From Betaproteobacteria bacterium (lineage in GTDB: Bacteria; Pseudomonadota; Gammaproteobacteria; Burkholderiales; SG8-39): 38,391 bases of DNA. The stretch spans positions 1-38,391 of the forward strand of contig SHXL01000002.1 in NCBI GenBank assembly GCA_009693345.1, given 5' to 3'. Positions 363-38,391 of this stretch are shown here, in pieces (position 1 is the first letter of the stretch; each line of letters opens with the position of its first letter). The position numbers and the translations under genes are program-made. The notes under the pieces are model-generated. The model saw only the letters and a program-made list of their open reading frames with translations, was not told the origin of the DNA and did not search any database.

Positions 363-2819
<2,457 letters not shown>

Positions 2820-2942: not shown

Positions 2943-3299
2943 ATGCCACCGACCACCACCCCGAGCGGGCTGATCATCAACGACACCGTCCTCGGCACGG
3001 GCGAGGCCGCCGTCGCCGGCCAGGACGTCTCCGTGCATTACACGGGCTGGCTCTTCTATGGCGGCGAACGGGGCAAAAAGTTCGATTCGAGCAAGGACCG
3101 CGGCACGCCCTTCGGCTTCGCGCTCGGCGCCGGCCAGGTCATCAAGGGCTGGGACGAGGGCGTGCAGGGCATGAAGATCGGCGGCAGCCGCACCCTCACC
3201 ATCCCGCCGGAACTGGGTTACGGCGCGCGCGGCGCCGGCGGCGCGATCCCGCCCAACGCGACGCTTATTTTCGAAGTGGAACTGCTGGCAGTCGGCTAG
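2943..3299 (+). CDS. FKBP-type peptidyl-prolyl cis-trans isomerase
   Basis: 118 aa starting at the internal ATG of ORF 1890..3299, with GGAG 8 nt upstream. Motifs: [37 protein letters not shown]...GYG, IPPNA.L.FEVELL. Confidence 0.93.
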
Positions 3300-3753
3300 G
3301 AAGGTAGAGCGGATGGGCGGGTTCGCCGCCCGCGTTCACGCGTAGCGCGTGCAGCGCGATTCTGTTTGCTCTTAACTTCTTGAGGACTTCGGCGGAACGA
3401 CCGAGAAATCCCCCGTGGTTGCCCCACGCGCACACCACGAGCGCCGAATCCTTCGCCGCGCGCACGATCGCCGCGTCGTTGCCCGGCCCCACCGGGTCGG
3501 CCGCCGCCTTCATCTGATCCGGGTCTGTATTCCTAAAAGCAAAAATATTCGTCACGATGAGGGCGCCGTAGCCCCATCGCTCGGCGAAATTGCGCGCCCT
3601 CGAGCACGTCGGATCGAGTTTCACCTCGTTCGCGGTGCTCGGGTTGAGCATGAGGAAATTGGCGACGGGCTGCGACGCATCCCAGCGCCGCCAGAGCAGG
3701 TAGCGCCAGCGGCGGCAGGACGAAAACGTGGCCCCCGAATCGTTGTTAAGCAT
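3265..3753 (-). CDS. DUF1643 domain-containing protein
   Basis: 162 aa with the pattern RYLLWRRW ... FLMLNPSTA ... DPT ... [10 protein letters not shown] ... AWG ... HPLY, which is characteristic of DUF1643. The ATG overlaps the livF-like stop (ATGCTTAA). Confidence 0.8.
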
Positions 3754-25481: not shown

Positions 25482-25904
25482 TCAGAAGGCGCGCGGATTC
25501 AGGATGCGGAAGGCCTTGGTGCGGTGTGCGAGTTCCAGCAGCTTGTGGTCCTTGGTGACGAGGCACTCGGCGCGCGCGGCGAGCGCCAGCTCGAGGAATT
25601 TCTGGTCGTCCGGGTCGACGCAGCGCGGCAGCAGCTTGCGCTCAGCTTCGGGCGCCGCAGCATCGATGCGGCGCGCGATGCGCCGGCATTCGGCGAGGCA
25701 GGTCCCTTGCGCGGCGGCATCGAGCGTATGCCTGGCGAGATCGTAGGCGAGCACGCGTTCAAGCTCCGCTTCGCACGCGGCGTCGATGAAAATTTCCGCG
25801 CGCCTTTCGAAAACTTCTTTTTTTAAATAGAGAAGAGATAAATCGTTAAACACCAGCCAATCGAGCCAGATGTTGGTGTCGAGGACGATGCGCCGCTCAG
25901 TCAT
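25482..25904 (-). CDS. PIN-domain putative toxin (VapC-like, TIGR00305-type)
   Basis: 140 aa: MTERRIVLDTNIWLDWL ... VDPDDQKFLELA ... LVTKDHKLL. These include the conserved acidic PIN residues. The ATG overlaps the upstream gene stop (ATGACTGA). Confidence 0.83.
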   Translation of the reverse strand: MTERRIVLDTNIWLDWLVFNDLSLLYLKKEVFERRAEIFIDAACEAELERVLAYDLARHTLDAAAQGTCLAECRRIARRIDAAAPEAERKLLPRCVDPDDQKFLELALAARAECLVTKDHKLLELAHRTKAFRILNPRAF

Positions 25905-26316
25905 CGAGCAGCACCAGTTCCGGCGCCCCGCCCTTCTCCACGAACACGATCGCAATCTGCTCCAGCCGGCGGCCGAGCGCCTCGGTGTCCGCGCGGCCGA
26001 TGCCGACGACCAGCACGCTCGGCTCGGGCGTCCAGAGGTCTTCCGGGTCGCGGCCTTCGCCGGCGCGAAAGCGTATTTTCTTTTCCTTCAATACGTTTTT
26101 CAGGAAATCAAAGGCAACAGCATTCTCTGCGTCACTCCTGCGCTCGCCCTGCGGGTTGGCGACGGTGACGTAGGCGGCGCTCGCGGCGCCGTCGGCTTCG
26201 AGCAGCGCGTCGAGGTCGGCATTGGGTTCGCCGATCTTGATGACGAGCTCCGGCTCGCGGAAGACGACGTACAGCGCCGCGTTGTAGGCGGCGATCAATT
26301 CCGAACGAGGCGGCAT
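25897..26316 (-). CDS. DUF3293 domain-containing protein
   Basis: About 139 aa from ATG 26316, with an alternative GTG at 26334: ...LIAAYNAALYVV ... YVTVANPQGERRSDAENA ... EPSVLVVGI ... QIAIVFVE. Confidence 0.78.
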   Translation of the reverse strand: MPPRSELIAAYNAALYVVFREPELVIKIGEPNADLDALLEADGAASAAYVTVANPQGERRSDAENAVAFDFLKNVLKEKKIRFRAGEGRDPEDLWTPEPSVLVVGIGRADTEALGRRLEQIAIVFVEKGGAPELVLLDD

Positions 26317-31097: not shown

Positions 31098-33086
31098 TTA
31101 CCAGGCGCGGGTCGCCCGGTTTACGGTTTTTTCCACATCTTCTTCCAGGTAGTAACCCCGCTTCACGAGGTCTTGGGCGGCAGTTCGAATTCTGGCAAGA
31201 AAAGCATTTTTGTCCTGATACCTTTCCGTCAAGGACGGGCGCGGATCCTTGGCCGCTTCGCGTTCGGCGGCGGTGCGCGCGAAGGGCAGCGCCGCGCCGT
31301 CGAGGTAGCACAACTCCCCCGCCGCGCCGCCTTCGGCGCTGCGCAGGGACCAGCCGGTGGTGGTGGCCGCGGGCACGGCCTGCTCGGGCATGCGCAGCCC
31401 CGCGATCTCGTTGCCGTCGGCGTCGATCGCCGGCACCAGCACGCGGTAGCGGAACGGATGGGGCGCGGGCGGGACGTTGTCGATGATGCCCTCAGCGATC
31501 CGCGCGCCGTAGTCGAACTGCGCCATCGGGTTGGGCGCGCGCGGCGCCGCGAAGGCGGCGGCCCCGGATCCGGGCAGCGTGGGCCACTTCAGAACCGACG
31601 CGCTCACCAGCGTGCGGTCAGCGAGCTTCGGGTAAACGCTTGGAGGAGGCAGCTCGCCTTTTTTCACCCAACGATCCAATGCCAGCACCAGTGCGCGCAT
31701 CGCCGGCCGCGGGTCCACCGCCAGGTTCGGTGGCGCACTGCACACGCCCTTCGGCATCGTCGGCGTGGTCGAGTGCTGCGTGCCGGCGAAATGGTAGATG
31801 CGCACGCTCTCGGGCAGCGCGATGTCGTGCTCGCCGGCCGCATCGGCGGTGTTGAGCGAATGCCCGCCCTGCCAGTATTCGGTGGAGGTGACGGTATGAA
31901 GCACCTTCGGGCAGACGTCGCGCGCGCGGCAGTGCTCGAGCAGGCCGTCTTCCCGGCGGCTCCTCGGATCGTTCTGCTTCTCGTAGGCGAAGGGAAAACC
32001 CGCGTCGGGATAGCCGACGAAGCCGTAGCCCAGGCTGTAGGCGCGGTTGGGCTGGGCGAAGCGGTAGTTCAGGTAGAGGCGTGCCGAGGCGATGTGCGGG
32101 TTGACGCCCTCGAACACGGTGCGCATGTCCTCGGTCTCGTTGAAGCCGTGGTACAGCATGTCGCGCAGGAAACGCCCGCTCTGCGAAGTGCCGTGCGCGA
32201 GCGCCACCGCGACCCCGTGCCGGCCATCGGGGCCGAGCGGATTGGGGGTGCCCGCGCTGTCGCGCTGCTGGTAGCGCAGGAAACCGATCCAGTCGCGCGT
32301 CGCGGCGTAGCCGATGCCCGCCACCGGCGGATTGCGCGCACGGTAGGAAAACTGGTAGAGCGCGCCGGCGCGGAACGGCGTGCCGCGCGGCAGCAGCACG
32401 ATCGCGCCGTCGTCGAGGAATTCCCAGCCGCCGGGCGGAATCAGGCGCGGCGGGTCGTCGTTGCGCTCGCGCACCGTGAGTCGCGCCGCTTTCTTGTCCA
32501 GGGACGCGGCGGAAAACGTCAGCTGCGCCTCGACCTGCCGGGAATCATTGAACAGGAACTCGTCCCAGACCGGTTGCTCGACGCCCGCCGCGCGCGGCAC
32601 GTCAAGCCGAAGCAGGCCCGGCGTGCGCGGCAAGCCGGGGATCCAGCCGCTCCAAGCCACGGTGAAGCCGTGGCGCATCAGGAAACCGTCGCCCGCGGCT
32701 TCGGGCGCATCCAGCGCATTGCCGGGCGGCGCGTCGTTCAACTGGCGAAGGATCACCTTGTTGCCAAGGTTGTTGACGTCGTAGAACAGGGTTCCGTTGC
32801 CCTTGAACGGGTCCGCGGGTCGCAGGATCACGAAGTCGGCGGAGTATTCCACCTTGCCGCGCGCGTTGCGGGGGGCGAGCCTGATGTCGGCAATGGACCG
32901 GTTCGCCGGATGGGTGGGATCGAGTTCGCCGCGGAAGCGCCCGGCGACGCGCAGGTAGGGCCCGGTGGCGCCGAAGACCTTGCCGCCTGCAAATGGCGCT
33001 TGGGAAGTGACTTCGATACGGGTTACTTCAGGAAAAGCATTGCCCGTTACAAACACGAAAAACAGGAGAAAAGAGAATCGAATCAT
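31098..33086 (-). CDS. Secreted protein with a C-terminal alpha/beta-hydrolase-like domain (Abhydrolase_10-like; assignment tentative)
   Basis: 662 aa from the internal ATG (MIRFSFLLFFVFVTGNAF, a signal peptide) of ORF 31098..33812. There is an ATGA overlap with the diguanylate cyclase stop. Confidence 0.8.
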   Translation of the reverse strand: MIRFSFLLFFVFVTGNAFPEVTRIEVTSQAPFAGGKVFGATGPYLRVAGRFRGELDPTHPANRSIADIRLAPRNARGKVEYSADFVILRPADPFKGNGTLFYDVNNLGNKVILRQLNDAPPGNALDAPEAAGDGFLMRHGFTVAWSGWIPGLPRTPGLLRLDVPRAAGVEQPVWDEFLFNDSRQVEAQLTFSAASLDKKAARLTVRERNDDPPRLIPPGGWEFLDDGAIVLLPRGTPFRAGALYQFSYRARNPPVAGIGYAATRDWIGFLRYQQRDSAGTPNPLGPDGRHGVAVALAHGTSQSGRFLRDMLYHGFNETEDMRTVFEGVNPHIASARLYLNYRFAQPNRAYSLGYGFVGYPDAGFPFAYEKQNDPRSRREDGLLEHCRARDVCPKVLHTVTSTEYWQGGHSLNTADAAGEHDIALPESVRIYHFAGTQHSTTPTMPKGVCSAPPNLAVDPRPAMRALVLALDRWVKKGELPPPSVYPKLADRTLVSASVLKWPTLPGSGAAAFAAPRAPNPMAQFDYGARIAEGIIDNVPPAPHPFRYRVLVPAIDADGNEIAGLRMPEQAVPAATTTGWSLRSAEGGAAGELCYLDGAALPFARTAAEREAAKDPRPSLTERYQDKNAFLARIRTAAQDLVKRGYYLEEDVEKTVNRATRAW

Positions 33087-34414
33087 TTGCTGACGCGATT
33101 TCTGCCGCTGCGCTTGGCGCGGTAGAGCGCTTCGTCGGCGGCCTTGAGCACTTGGGCGGGGGTGGACGCCCCACCTCCCGGCGCAGCACCGCCAATCGAG
33201 ACCGTGACCGAGAGGATTTTTCCCGGCGCCAGCGTCTCCTCCGTGTTGGGGCCGCGGAGCTTCTCGCCCAACTCCTTTACCTTGGGGCGGTTCTCGCCGC
33301 GAACCGCCATGCGATAGGACGCGACCGATGCACGGATCGCATCCAGGTGCGGCATCGCCTGCTCCAGCGTTGCATGGTCGAATAGCACCGTGAACTCCTC
33401 GCCGCCGTAGCGGAACGCGCGCCCGCCGCCTTCGACTTCGGCAAGGCGCGCCGCCACCAGCTTGAACACCTGGTCGCCGATGTCGTGGCCGTGCGTGTCG
33501 TTGAAGGACTTGAAGTGGTCCACGTCGACCATCGCCAGCACGTAGCGCGGCCCCAGGCCCGCCATCGCCTCCAGCAGCGCGCGCCGGCCCGGCAGGCCGG
33601 TCAGCTCGCCATTGAACGCGAGCCGGTGCGATTCCTGCAGCATGGCGACGATCAGGACCGCGCCCGCCGCCGCGGTGAACACGCCGAACACCGCCTCGCT
33701 GGCGGGCCACTCGCAGGCGACCAGGAAAGCCACGAGCGCGCCCGCCTGGCCCACGGCGATCGGCGACACCGGCCCGCCCTGCTTGGCAACATGCGGCGGC
33801 CAGGCGCGCCACACCGCGGCGATGAGCGCGGCGCAGAAGAGCACCCTGCTGAGGAACGGCGGGCCAAGGAGCGGCGCGTGCGGCGAGCGCAGCAGCCAGT
33901 GCTCAGTCATCTCCTGCCAGGCCATGCCCGAGAGCGCGCTGCGGCCGGAGGACGCGATCCACGCGACGAGGAGGATCTCGCCCACGACGATGAAGAGCCA
34001 CCGGTGATCGCCGTGGTAGGACACGCCGCGCTCGGGCAAGAGCAGCGCGACCAGGATGTTGAGGGGCACCAGCACCACCGCGGCCGTATACACCGCGCGC
34101 GCCGCAAAACTGCCGGCGCCGAAATCGAGCGCCAGACGATAGCCGGCGTAGGCGAGAAGCAGCGAAGCCGCCGCGACGAACGCCCGGCCGCGGTTGAACC
34201 ACAGGCCCATCCCCGCACCCGCCAGGAGAACGAAATACGCGCCGGCCTCCTTCAGGCCGGCAAGCGAGGGCGGCAGCGCGGGCCCGAGCCACAGCGCGAG
34301 CGCGGCGGCGGCAAGGATCGCGCCGGGGGGGATCAGGGGACGCAATTCAGCGGCGAGCGGGACGCGCACGGAGGCCGGCCTTGCGACCGGGCTTTGGCCG
34401 GGTTTTCCTGCCAT
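33083..34414 (-). CDS. Membrane-anchored diguanylate cyclase (GGDEF domain)
   Basis: Multiple N-terminal TM helices precede the GGDEF domain (DVDHFKSFNDTHGH..GD, RYGGEEF, ADEALYRAK). The start is uncertain: ATG 34414 or GTG 34369. Both overlap the upstream regulator gene. Confidence 0.83.
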   Translation of the reverse strand: MAGKPGQSPVARPASVRVPLAAELRPLIPPGAILAAAALALWLGPALPPSLAGLKEAGAYFVLLAGAGMGLWFNRGRAFVAAASLLLAYAGYRLALDFGAGSFAARAVYTAAVVLVPLNILVALLLPERGVSYHGDHRWLFIVVGEILLVAWIASSGRSALSGMAWQEMTEHWLLRSPHAPLLGPPFLSRVLFCAALIAAVWRAWPPHVAKQGGPVSPIAVGQAGALVAFLVACEWPASEAVFGVFTAAAGAVLIVAMLQESHRLAFNGELTGLPGRRALLEAMAGLGPRYVLAMVDVDHFKSFNDTHGHDIGDQVFKLVAARLAEVEGGGRAFRYGGEEFTVLFDHATLEQAMPHLDAIRASVASYRMAVRGENRPKVKELGEKLRGPNTEETLAPGKILSVTVSIGGAAPGGGASTPAQVLKAADEALYRAKRSGRNRVSK

Positions 34415-34778
34415 ATTTCGGCCGGGGTGGCGGTTCGATGCTGTGCTCGGCCGAGTGGTCCTCCAGCGTCGGCGGCGCCCCCGCGGTCTTTTCCAACACC
34501 GCGGCGAGTTCGTCGAACACCGGCGAGGCCTCGTTGGCGCTGTAGTGGATCTGGTTGCCGATGCGCTCGGCGCTGAGCAGGCCGGCATCCGCGAGCTGCC
34601 GCAATTCCCGATGCAGCGATCCGGCGGGAACCCCGGTGAGGCGCGAAATCATCCGCACGTGGAAGCCATCGCCCGGGCGCAGGAACAGGAGCGACAGCAC
34701 GCGGTGGCGGTAGGCGCCGAACAGCAGGTTCGCCAGCAGCTGCTGCGCGGGCAGTGGTTCGGACTCCGTTCTCAACAT
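34347..34778 (-). CDS. Winged helix-turn-helix (ArsR/MarR-like) transcriptional regulator
   Basis: 143 aa: RHRVLSLLFLRPGDGFHVRMISRLTGVPAGSLHRELRQLADAGLL, with a basic C-terminal tail. Confidence 0.72.
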   Translation of the reverse strand: MLRTESEPLPAQQLLANLLFGAYRHRVLSLLFLRPGDGFHVRMISRLTGVPAGSLHRELRQLADAGLLSAERIGNQIHYSANEASPVFDELAAVLEKTAGAPPTLEDHSAEHSIEPPPRPKYGRKTRPKPGRKAGLRARPARR

Positions 34779-34816: not shown

Positions 34817-37111
<2,295 letters not shown>

Positions 37112-37114
37112 GGC

Positions 37115-37363
37115 TTATTTGAAGAGATCCAGTTGTTTGTCGGCCATCGCGACCGCGCCTTCCACCGCGCGCTTGGCCTTGTCGAGGTCGTCGCCGCCGC
37201 CGGCGCGCCCGCCGGCTTCCCAGGTGTATTTCTGCTTCGCGTCCCTGGCGGTGTGCCGCGTCACCTTGCCGAGCTTCGTTTTGCCCTGCCAGTAGACGTG
37301 CCCGTTATAGCCGGGCTCCCATATCGGCTTTTGACCCGCCGGTTTTTGCTTCTTCTTAGACAT
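37115..37363 (-). CDS. Small basic hypothetical protein with a C-terminal QLDLF (beta-clamp-binding-like) motif
   Basis: This 82-codon ORF exactly fills the parE-parC spacer. Its ATG overlaps the parE stop (ATGTCTAA) and its TAA lies 3 nt before the parC ATG. Third codon positions are GC-rich like the neighbouring genes. Confidence 0.6.
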   Translation of the reverse strand: MSKKKQKPAGQKPIWEPGYNGHVYWQGKTKLGKVTRHTARDAKQKYTWEAGGRAGGGDDLDKAKRAVEGAVAMADKQLDLFK

Positions 37364-38391
37364 CGGCCTCCACGGTCTTCCAGTGCTCGCGCATCCAGTT
37401 CCTGCGTCCTTCGGCCTCTCCGGAATCCATCAGCAGCTCGAAGGTCTCGCGCGCCTTCTCGATCTGCTTCGCATCGAGCTGCATGCGCACCAGGCGCCGG
37501 GAATCCGGGTTCATCGAGGTCTCCCAGAGCTGCTCGGGGTTCATCTCGCCCAGGCCCTTGAAGCGCGAGATTTCCCAGGAGCCGTCCTTCACTTTCTCTT
37601 TCCTCAGGGCGCGCAAAGTCTCTTCCAGTTCATCCTCGTCCAGGCAGTAGATGCGGCGAGCGGCGCCTTTTCCATCCCTCCCCTTGCCCTGCGAAGGCAC
37701 CTCCACCTTGAACAGCGGCGCCTGCGAGACGTAGATGTGGCCGGTCTCGACGAGCCTGGGTGCGTGCATGAAGAAGAAGGTCAGCAGCAGGGCCTGGATG
37801 TGGCCGCCGTCGACGTCGGCGTCGGTCATGATGATGACCTTGCCGTAGCGCAGGCCCGAGAGATCCGGTGAATCCGCCGAACCGTGCGGATCGACGCCGA
37901 TAGCGGTGGCGATCGCCTGCAATTCCTTGTTGGCGAGCACCGTGCGCGCGTCCTTCGACATCGAATTCAGCACCTTGCCGCGCAGGGGCAGGATCGCCTG
38001 GGTCTCCTTGTCGCGCGCTTCCTTGGCCGACCCCCCCGCAGAATCGCCCTCCACCATGAAAAGCTCGTTGCGCGAGGTGTCGTCCGAGGAGCACTCGACC
38101 AGCTTGCCGGGCAGCGTCGCCACGCCGGAGCCCTTCTTGCGTTCGAATTTCTTGCCCCTGGAGAGCCGCGCGAGCGCCTGCTCGATCGCGAGTTCCACGA
38201 TCTTCTTGCCATCGTCCGGGTGCTGATTGAGCCACAGCTCGAAGGCGTCGCGCACGCACAGCTCCAGCAGCTTCGCCGCGTGCCGCGTGGTGAGCTTTTC
38301 CTTGGTTTGGCCGTGGAACTGGGTGCGCACGATCCGAGCCGAGAGCGTGAAGCAGGCGCGCTGCCAGAGGTCGTCCGCGATCAGCTTGACG
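37356..38391 (-). CDS. parE: DNA topoisomerase IV subunit B, C-terminal ~345 codons (5' end beyond the right window edge)
   Basis: The frame is open to the window edge. Motifs: QFHGQTKEKL, the Toprim EL.MVEGDSAGGSAK, IMTDADVDGGHI and KGLGEMNPEQLWET. Confidence 0.93.
   Translation of the reverse strand, partial: VKLIADDLWQRACFTLSARIVRTQFHGQTKEKLTTRHAAKLLELCVRDAFELWLNQHPDDGKKIVELAIEQALARLSRGKKFERKKGSGVATLPGKLVECSSDDTSRNELFMVEGDSAGGSAKEARDKETQAILPLRGKVLNSMSKDARTVLANKELQAIATAIGVDPHGSADSPDLSGLRYGKVIIMTDADVDGGHIQALLLTFFFMHAPRLVETGHIYVSQAPLFKVEVPSQGKGRDGKGAARRIYCLDEDELEETLRALRKEKVKDGSWEISRFKGLGEMNPEQLWETSMNPDSRRLVRMQLDAKQIEKARETFELLMDSGEAEGRRNWMREHWKTVEADV

Follow-up and report, generated by a model that had tools for sequence, protein, structure and literature searches.

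A small protein gene kept between parE and parC in uncultured Burkholderiales encodes a C-terminal candidate sliding-clamp-binding motif

We analysed a 38,391-nucleotide stretch of DNA (hereafter the window) from contig SHXL01000002.1 of the Betaproteobacteria bacterium assembly GCA_009693345.1, in which a small open reading frame (ORF) lies between parE and parC, the genes for the two subunits of topoisomerase IV (Topo IV). This ORF is a real gene, and its product ends in QLDLF, a pentapeptide that probably binds the DnaN (beta) sliding clamp. The explanation that best accounts for the observations is that the gene encodes a small accessory protein, tethered to the clamp, that would cooperate with Topo IV; from the comparison of sequences and a predicted structure, we assign to this reading as a whole a probability of about 45%.

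The small ORF occupies positions 37115..37363, as given in the initial annotation, lies on the minus strand and comprises 82 codons and a stop; its product is MSKKKQKPAGQKPIWEPGYNGHVYWQGKTKLGKVTRHTARDAKQKYTWEAGGRAGGGDDLDKAKRAVEGAVAMADKQLDLFK. The partial ORF upstream of it (37356..38391, minus strand) contains only the C-terminal 344 codons of parE, runs past the end of the window and matches the parE_Gneg, Toprim and GyrB_C models. The downstream gene, parC (34817..37111, minus strand), encodes the 764-residue subunit A and matches the family model TIGR01062 (parC_Gneg) with 713 bits, for a cutoff of 629. The ATG of the small ORF (37361..37363) and the TAA of parE (37356..37358) are both contained in an 8-nt overlap, ATGTCTAA (37356..37363, minus strand), and a Shine-Dalgarno-like GGAGG is present within the end of parE, 3 nt 5' of this ATG (37367..37371, minus strand). 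At the other end, the TAA of the small ORF (37115..37117) is separated from the ATG of parC (37109..37111) by the three nucleotides GCC, forming a TAA-GCC-ATG junction (37109..37117, minus strand), and no GGAG-like element was found in the 20 nt examined before the parC ATG. Promoter-like or terminator-like sites were not found between parE, the small ORF and parC. The GC content at the first, second and third codon positions of the small ORF (0.61/0.43/0.81) is close to that of parC (0.62/0.43/0.85) and parE (0.64/0.41/0.88). The initial annotation had described the overlapping ATG, the 3-nt gap before a parC start devoid of a Shine-Dalgarno sequence, the QLDLF codons at 37121..37135 and third positions as GC-rich as those of the neighbours, and each of these descriptive elements was correct.

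Among 5.8 billion proteins searched, 928 were homologues of the small protein at E ≤ 0.01. The best 120 of these are all 75-87 amino acids long, and 110 of them end in QLDLF followed by one or two residues, the remainder being close variants. The conservation of gene order was evaluated in 71 loci from a species-representative genome collection, all from metagenome-assembled genomes (MAGs) of uncultured Burkholderiales or Betaproteobacteria, which, judging by the isolate names, come mostly from soil and groundwater; the SG8_39 MAG (L165) turned up separately, via a ParC pattern scan. The initial annotation had suggested looking for the retention of the ORF and of its C-terminal motif in related genomes, and we observed that the order parE-small ORF-parC was kept in all 71 loci and the motif in 70. 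This order persists despite saturated synonymous divergence. For 32 orthologues, the mean proportions of nonsynonymous and synonymous differences (pN and pS) were 0.19 and 0.56, respectively, and the median ratio of nonsynonymous to synonymous divergence (dN/dS) was 0.21. Together with the homologues and the neighbour-like GC profile, this value supports the earlier proposal that the ORF is really translated.

Two readings that deny the peptide a role can be weighed with these data. The first is that the conserved 3' end of the ORF is a nucleic-acid signal for the initiation of parC. It was rejected, given that every codon of the motif shows synonymous variants (CAA/CAG for Q, CTG/CTC/TTG for the first L, GAC/GAT for D, CTC/CTT/CTG/CTA for the second L and TTC/TTT for F), from which it follows that it is the peptide that is constrained, not a signal in the RNA or DNA. 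The second is that the ORF is a mere device for translational coupling, or a spurious ORF, whose peptide has no function. GC-rich windows do contain many long spurious ORFs, and this one exactly bridges two genes; however, the purifying selection at the protein level, the synonymous variation in the motif codons, the existence of hundreds of homologues, some of them outside the operon, and a confidently predicted fold (see below) effectively exclude this possibility.

The QLDLF sequence corresponds to residues 77-81, one residue from the C-terminus (37121..37135, minus strand). The initial annotation had matched it to the clamp-binding consensus QL[S/D]LF, reportedly described by Dalrymple in 2001, and had stressed its position at the extreme C-terminus. 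By automatic extraction, a Q-x-x-[LM]-F sequence was located 1-6 residues from the C-terminus in 70 of the 71 loci, and 1-2 residues from it in 67 of these 70; the remaining locus is an indel-ridden, frameshifted long-read contig in which ...AVAMADKQLDLFR can still be read. The forms present in the 70 loci were QLDLF (54), QPDLF (4), QFDLF (3), QMDLF (3), QLNLF (2), QLPLF (2), QRDLF (1) and QLSLF (1). In an alignment of 81 sequences, Q77 and F81 are invariant. The same trend was observed in an alignment of 37 more distant relatives, where the Q of the motif never varies and its L and F show at least 90% conservation. Relatives at 30-45% identity likewise have the Q, L and F of the motif among their few invariant positions. 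Among the relatives, position 2 is occupied by L, M, F, Y, P or H and position 3 by D, S, P, T, G, R or N, giving variants such as QLSLF, QLPLF, QMDLF, QYDLF, QHDLF, QFSLF and QLRLF. The earlier match was thus strengthened by anchors (Q, the fourth-position L and the final F) that are invariant or nearly so, and by tolerant second and third positions. QLDLF is the consensus peptide of clamp-binding studies, and motifs of this class combine fixed anchors with tolerance at positions 2 and 3 (PMC11139829). Since the conservation of the motif in the family mirrors this pattern, clamp binding seems well supported, and we consider it quite probable that the C-terminal motif binds the DnaN clamp.

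The structure of the protein was predicted with AlphaFold2 (AF2) from the 81-sequence alignment (mean predicted local distance difference test, pLDDT, 79.7; predicted template-modelling score, pTM, 0.64). The model begins with a Lys-rich N-terminal tail (residues 1-13, MSKKKQKPAGQKP; 37325..37363, minus strand), of which residues 1-12 are predicted to be disordered and residues 1-6 have a pLDDT below 50. This tail is followed by a core consisting of a five-stranded antiparallel beta-sheet (residues 13-57; 37193..37327, minus strand; pLDDT approximately 84-90), with strands at residues 13-17, 21-26, 29-36, 46-50 and 53-57, in which W15, E16, G18, Y19, H22, W25, G27, K28, G32, Y46, W48 and G55 are invariant or nearly so. 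The last element, which backs this compact sheet, is an alpha-helix of the pattern L-x-K-A-K-x-A-V-E-x-A-V (residues 60-80; 37124..37186, minus strand), which runs into the motif and in which L60, A63, V67 and E68 are conserved. The confidence of the model fades along this helix, the mean pLDDT falling to 70 over residues 71-80 and to 53 over residues 81-82.

The initial annotation had not recognised the rest of the protein as a named family, and our searches assigned it to none. The ORF has no match at E ≤ 1 in Pfam, NCBIfam or PHROG, and no family was found for nine of its distant relatives either. A profile search of the PDB sequences gave 0 matches at E ≤ 10. When the AF2 model was compared with the PDB using Foldseek, all matches had E > 1 and none reached E ≤ 0.001; against BFVD, the best match had an E-value of 0.026, the matches were uncharacterised phage proteins, and none reached E ≤ 0.001. 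The weak Foldseek likenesses to polo-box and arm-type integrase domains (3rmp, 3jtz) were dismissed as not significant, the arm-type one having E > 2 and a template-modelling (TM) score of approximately 0.25. The YD/Rhs repeat label carried by two homologues in the Joint Genome Institute (JGI) annotation (P0022, P0095) was also rejected, since no RHS or YD model of Pfam or NCBIfam matched at E ≤ 1; integrase models of Pfam gave no match at this threshold either. The small protein does share a sheet-plus-helix topology with the arm-type integrase and AP2-like three-stranded DNA-binding domains, a likeness not taken as membership, and like these domains and the YD/Rhs repeats it has short beta-hairpins rich in Tyr, Gly and Trp. 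No earlier description seems to exist of the protein family, of its fold, of its location between parE and parC or of the N-terminal ParC peptide presented below; the motif class itself is well known.

The junctions of the small ORF with its neighbours were compared among the 71 loci. The same 8-nt overlap with parE is present in 24 of them; starts used elsewhere include a TTG 17 nt upstream, and the distance from the parE stop to the small ORF never exceeds approximately 100 nt. In eight loci the ATG is replaced by ACG, and a TTG located 9 nt further upstream opens the frame (L026, L027, L032, L033, L036, L042, L043, L070); in another six, translation could plausibly start only at the CTG within a CTGA that overlaps the parE stop (L017, L019, L041, L056, L059, L064). 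These noncanonical starts suggest that translation is initiated by ribosomes that have just terminated on parE, or by some other non-standard initiation, and thus that initiation of the small ORF may depend on termination-reinitiation at the parE stop. On the other side, the parC ATG overlaps the small-ORF stop or lies at most 15 nt from it in 47 of the 68 loci that could be scored. The proposal in the initial annotation that the three genes look coupled agrees with the 8-nt overlap, the 3-nt gap, the absence of an intervening promoter or terminator and the persistence of the arrangement across loci. Judged from these sequence features, the small ORF belongs to one operon with parE and parC, and its translation seems to be coupled to that of both.

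A second peptide that resembles a clamp-binding motif, TPDLF, is encoded at the beginning of parC (residues 5-9; 37085..37099, minus strand). All 71 loci of the clade encode T[LPGRA]D[LM]F at approximately residues 5-10 of ParC. Other Betaproteobacteria were sampled by a ParC-anchored DNA pattern scan (L094-L212), and in most of them QxxLF, TxDLF or QxxLx[FL] is found within the first 12 residues, approximately, followed by an acidic or proline-rich linker; cultured Paraburkholderia, Cupriavidus, Massilia, Acidovorax and Variovorax are among these bacteria. The peptides include QAGLF in Pusillimonas, QNNLF in Pseudoduganella, QASLF in Massilia, QPDLF in Dechloromonas, QDDLF in Trinickia, TLDLF in Paraburkholderia, TPDLF in Zoogloea and Sulfuritalea, TIDLF in Caldimonas mangrovi, QQDITF in Cupriavidus necator, QATLEF in Thiomonas, QPTLDF in Acidovorax, QTTLDL in Rhodoferax and QPPLDL in Variovorax. 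The peptide is absent in Extensimonas, and there was no clear match in two MAGs (L110, L168). Our literature searches retrieved no report of a link between ParC or Topo IV and the clamp, and accordingly no precedent for Topo IV as a clamp client, nor a relevant new small clamp-binding protein; the word 'topoisomerase' does not occur in a 2024 review on the clamp (PMC11139829). The resemblance of the ParC peptide to the clamp motif makes a connection between Topo IV and the clamp as such more plausible, and both products of the operon may plausibly act at the same hub.

The mechanism that we propose combines these elements. The QLDLF peptide would dock in the hydrophobic cleft of the DnaN clamp, tethering the small protein to DNA-loaded clamps, and the basic tail would most likely contact the DNA running through or beside the ring. 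With the gene fixed in the operon, its start near the parE stop and the restart of ParC nearby, the small protein would be made together with Topo IV and in proportion to it. The clamp is a dimer and has two clefts; given this and the TPDLF peptide of ParC, clamps that stay behind on freshly replicated DNA are, in our proposal, the place where the small protein could meet Topo IV. It may help to keep or place the enzyme at the sites where precatenanes form, and would thus be an accessory factor at the clamp and not a necessary bridge. Taken separately, the functional cooperation of the small protein with Topo IV is put forward tentatively, with odds that we place below even. A bolder version is that betaproteobacterial Topo IV is in general a clamp client by means of the N-terminal peptide of ParC, joined in one soil lineage by a clamp-tethered, DNA-contacting miniprotein with a new fold, and that this module directs the enzyme to the precatenanes behind the fork. 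We consider this version unlikely.

A different function for the same peptide is also conceivable, namely that the small protein is a competitive regulator whose QLDLF occupies the clefts and limits weaker clients, including the TPDLF of ParC, thereby setting a threshold or the timing for Topo IV or for other enzymes. Hda- or YabA-type regulators and clamp-targeting toxins, which act through the same cleft, offer an analogy. QLDLF is the optimal consensus and the T[LPG]DLF peptides of the clade ParC proteins lack the N-terminal Q, so that they are probably weaker, and a single mRNA would yield both products in a fixed ratio. However, neither toxicity nor an accompanying antitoxin is in evidence, and the family is maintained as one chromosomal gene. 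A pure competitor would also have no need of the conserved folded domain and the basic tail; on balance, we judge this role improbable. The Q-x-x-L-F tail could also bind a conserved partner other than the clamp, in this operon ParE or ParC, with the TxDLF of ParC using the same pocket. Two similar xLDLF peptides are indeed encoded less than 40 nt apart. Against this, the sequence pattern equals the clamp-binding consensus, and the motif is kept in family members that are not linked to parE or parC, which implies that the partner of the tail must be universal. Such a partner distinct from the clamp seems very unlikely to us.

The members of the family not linked to parE and parC were obtained from an exhaustive profile search, which yielded 140 clusters at 50% identity. 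We refer to this family as the WERGY-domain family, after the conserved W-E-R/P-G-Y sequence; its members have in common the core W-E-R-G-Y-x-x-H-x-x-W-x-G ... Y-x-W ... L-x-x-A-K-x-x-V-E. Within the alignment of the 37 relatives, which show 23-66% identity to its first sequence, only Met1, W25, Y56, A73 and the motif Q occupy columns without any variation. The motif is kept at homologous columns in 41 of 96 near-full-length cluster representatives. Representatives that bear the motif carry about twice as many Lys and Arg residues just before the core as those that do not (means of 4.2 and 2.1, respectively; p = 3e-6; 96 representatives), which indicates that the basic tail and the motif travel together.

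These relatives, and other observations, weigh against a role in cooperation with Topo IV. A sister subfamily, also from uncultured Burkholderiales (WERGYRSHGYWLGK...QLxLF followed by an acidic tail; WERGYRSHGYW...), keeps the motif and was never found within 4 kb of parE or parC in 15 loci; its neighbours (ilvA, kup, a gene for a 289-residue outer-membrane-like protein and an allF/fdrA-like operon) provide no functional lead. More distant members with the motif follow a WYL-like gene of 96 amino acids or htrA. The linkage to parE and parC is therefore complete in one clade (71 of 71 loci) and absent in the sister subfamily and in the distant members, and since relatives that bear the motif sit away from parE and parC, the core function of the family would not need Topo IV. 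In addition, all the orthologues come from MAGs, and in six of the loci 333-1524 nt lie between the small ORF and parC. ParC has its own clamp-like peptide, so that the small adaptor between Topo IV and the clamp hypothesised in the initial annotation is not obviously needed, and this more specific idea is weakened. Regarding the motif itself, clamp-bound motifs adopt an extended form, whereas in the AF2 model most of the motif is part of the single helix of residues 60-80, at low confidence there.

The position of the gene is also open to another explanation. Where parE and parC are adjacent in other Burkholderiales, the spacer between them is 12-170 nt long and empty, or it carries unrelated genes (filled-spacer loci L110, L131, L149, L150, L168, L191, L199 and L205). 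An SLT-type lytic transglycosylase gene occupies it in Cupriavidus necator, Acidovorax soli, Rhodoferax, Comamonadaceae and the Burkholderiales MAG L110, a GNAT acetyltransferase-like gene in Caldimonas, and a VapBC-like toxin-antitoxin pair in a Rhodocyclaceae MAG. The spacer accepts insertions, and therefore position alone is weak evidence of a shared function; the spacer is a permissive site, and a gene caught there can hardly be lost, as the genes on both sides are essential and coupled.

The main rival to our proposal follows from these data: the small protein would be a general clamp-associated factor with no specific tie to Topo IV, acting for example in marking DNA or the nucleoid, or in clamp occupancy or unloading, and its location would reflect a historical insertion, retained since a precise loss would disturb the expression of ParC. 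The relatives with the same architecture and motif in unrelated neighbourhoods, the unrelated genes in the spacers of Cupriavidus, Acidovorax, Rhodoferax, Caldimonas and Rhodocyclaceae, and the fact that no genome is common to the 71-locus list and the 15-locus list of the sister subfamily all favour it; this last observation is consistent with one family member per genome, at differing sites. In contrast, the tight and conserved coupling to both neighbours, including noncanonical starts that are sensible only with parE-dependent re-initiation, and the clamp-like N-terminus of ParC, which would put both products at the same hub, speak for a specific relation with Topo IV. We regard the general factor as possible, although on the doubtful side, and we retain the clamp-tethered accessory protein that cooperates with Topo IV as the preferred reading.

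Beyond the operon, the family reaches replicons of other kinds. A branch with two motifs is formed by proteins of 116 amino acids that begin with MDFYPDLEGLPLF (LEGLPLF...) and end in QMALF. It is conserved in 137 megaplasmid records of the Ralstonia solanacearum complex and in four Cupriavidus records; examples are UGS88214.1 of Ralstonia wenshanensis p56D2 (L214 2360..2710, plus strand) and an unannotated member on the megaplasmid of R. solanacearum PSI07 (L215 3001..3351, plus strand). Many of these Ralstonia and Cupriavidus records list no gene at that position, their gene tables being incomplete. A motif at both ends of the protein fits a target with two clefts, and this 116-residue protein offers a tractable model of the family in a cultured organism.

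The branch without the motif often bears other C-terminal extensions. It includes hypothetical proteins of Caulobacter and Brevundimonas jumbo phages (CcrColossus, CcrPW and vB_BpoS-*; JX100810.1 212718..212900 (L213), MH588545.1 and ON529850-ON529860), and in CcrColossus the neighbourhood of the family member contains only hypothetical proteins. A tblastn search of phage and plasmid collections with the protein of the window gave no match. In another branch (P0212/P0331), the family member is always preceded by the 96-residue WYL-domain-like ORF, which has no Pfam match (L075 5624..5914, L076 5624..5914, L077 410..700) and may be its partner gene; the neighbourhood of the P0212 group offered no clue to function.

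Regarding Topo IV itself, the ParE and ParC proteins of the clade are 82-92% and 70-88% identical, respectively, to those of the window, and those of the other sampled Betaproteobacteria are approximately 48-57% and 46-66% identical. The lack of intermediates between these ranges indicates that the Topo IV of the clade is markedly diverged. The MAG MFD02242.bin.2.37 has two parE-ORF-parC loci (L071, L062); L071, only 66-70% identical and with many frameshifts, results either from long-read errors, from another strain contaminating the bin or from the decay of a second copy. Two apparent fusions of ParE with the miniprotein (P0165, P0141) were considered as Rosetta-stone evidence and rejected, as they are frameshift-ridden read-throughs of noisy assemblies.

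The surroundings in the window correspond to ordinary chromosome, and nothing around the parE-parC operon points to a mobile element. Directly downstream of parC are a gene for a weakly MarR/IclR-like helix-turn-helix protein, with matches below the Pfam cutoffs, and one for a membrane GGDEF protein. The window also encodes a PIN-domain gene, a DUF1643 gene, the Lon protease, a set of branched-chain amino-acid ATP-binding cassette (ABC) transporter genes and a TctC-family receptor; dnaN is not among its genes. The side genes recorded in the wider window lie at 34347..34778, 33083..34588, 25482..25955, 3265..3753 and 363..2819, all on the minus strand.

Compared with known clients of the clamp, the small protein shows a clear likeness in its peptide. 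Terminal clamp motifs occur at the C-terminus of Pol II (...QLGLF) and Pol IV (...QLVLGL) and at the N-terminus of Hda (QLSLPL); in the small protein the pentapeptide equals the consensus, lies at the extreme terminus and combines constant Q, L4 and F5 residues with freely varying positions 2 and 3. It differs from these clients in having approximately 80 residues, no catalytic domain, no homology to a known client and no significant fold match in the PDB. The clamp also serves as a platform for small proteins without enzymatic activity. Among these are the replication regulators Hda and YabA, as well as gp33 and gp55 of phage T4 and MuC of phage Mu, through which the clamp is connected to RNA polymerase (PMC12867686). 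Like Hda, YabA, gp33/gp55 and MuC, the protein described here is small, has a terminal clamp-binding peptide as its main recognisable feature and could plausibly link the clamp to a machine or to DNA; in contrast, it is unrelated to all of them in sequence and predicted fold.

The clamp cleft is an antibiotic target. If the proposed mechanism is true, the clamp interactome would gain a type II topoisomerase together with a new family of miniproteins; it is still growing, as illustrated by the RecBCD-clamp interaction reported in 2026 (PMC13254535). Even if there were no link to Topo IV, the family would constitute an unannotated and widespread group of small proteins, reaching the Ralstonia solanacearum complex and jumbo phages, whose most conserved feature is a putative clamp-binding motif.

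A functional comparison can be made with the targeting of Topo IV in Escherichia coli. To our knowledge, only for E. coli-type bacteria is it understood how this enzyme locates intertwined DNA that has just been replicated. There, MukB and SeqA, the latter a Topo IV targeting factor of E. coli, provide the route; as far as we know, and as we assume here, MukBEF and SeqA are absent from the organisms studied, so that our proposal bears on Topo IV targeting in bacteria without them. In E. coli, targeting involves the interaction of the MukB hinge with ParC (PMC5061553). A different and testable route for Topo IV, by way of the sliding clamp, is suggested by the QLDLF protein encoded between the two subunit genes and by the N-terminal peptide of ParC. 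As with MukB and SeqA, a partner protein would concentrate Topo IV on newly replicated DNA; unlike them, the platform would be the clamp instead of SeqA or a structural maintenance of chromosomes (SMC) protein, with no homology between the factors, and the gene of the candidate factor is part of the parE-parC operon itself.

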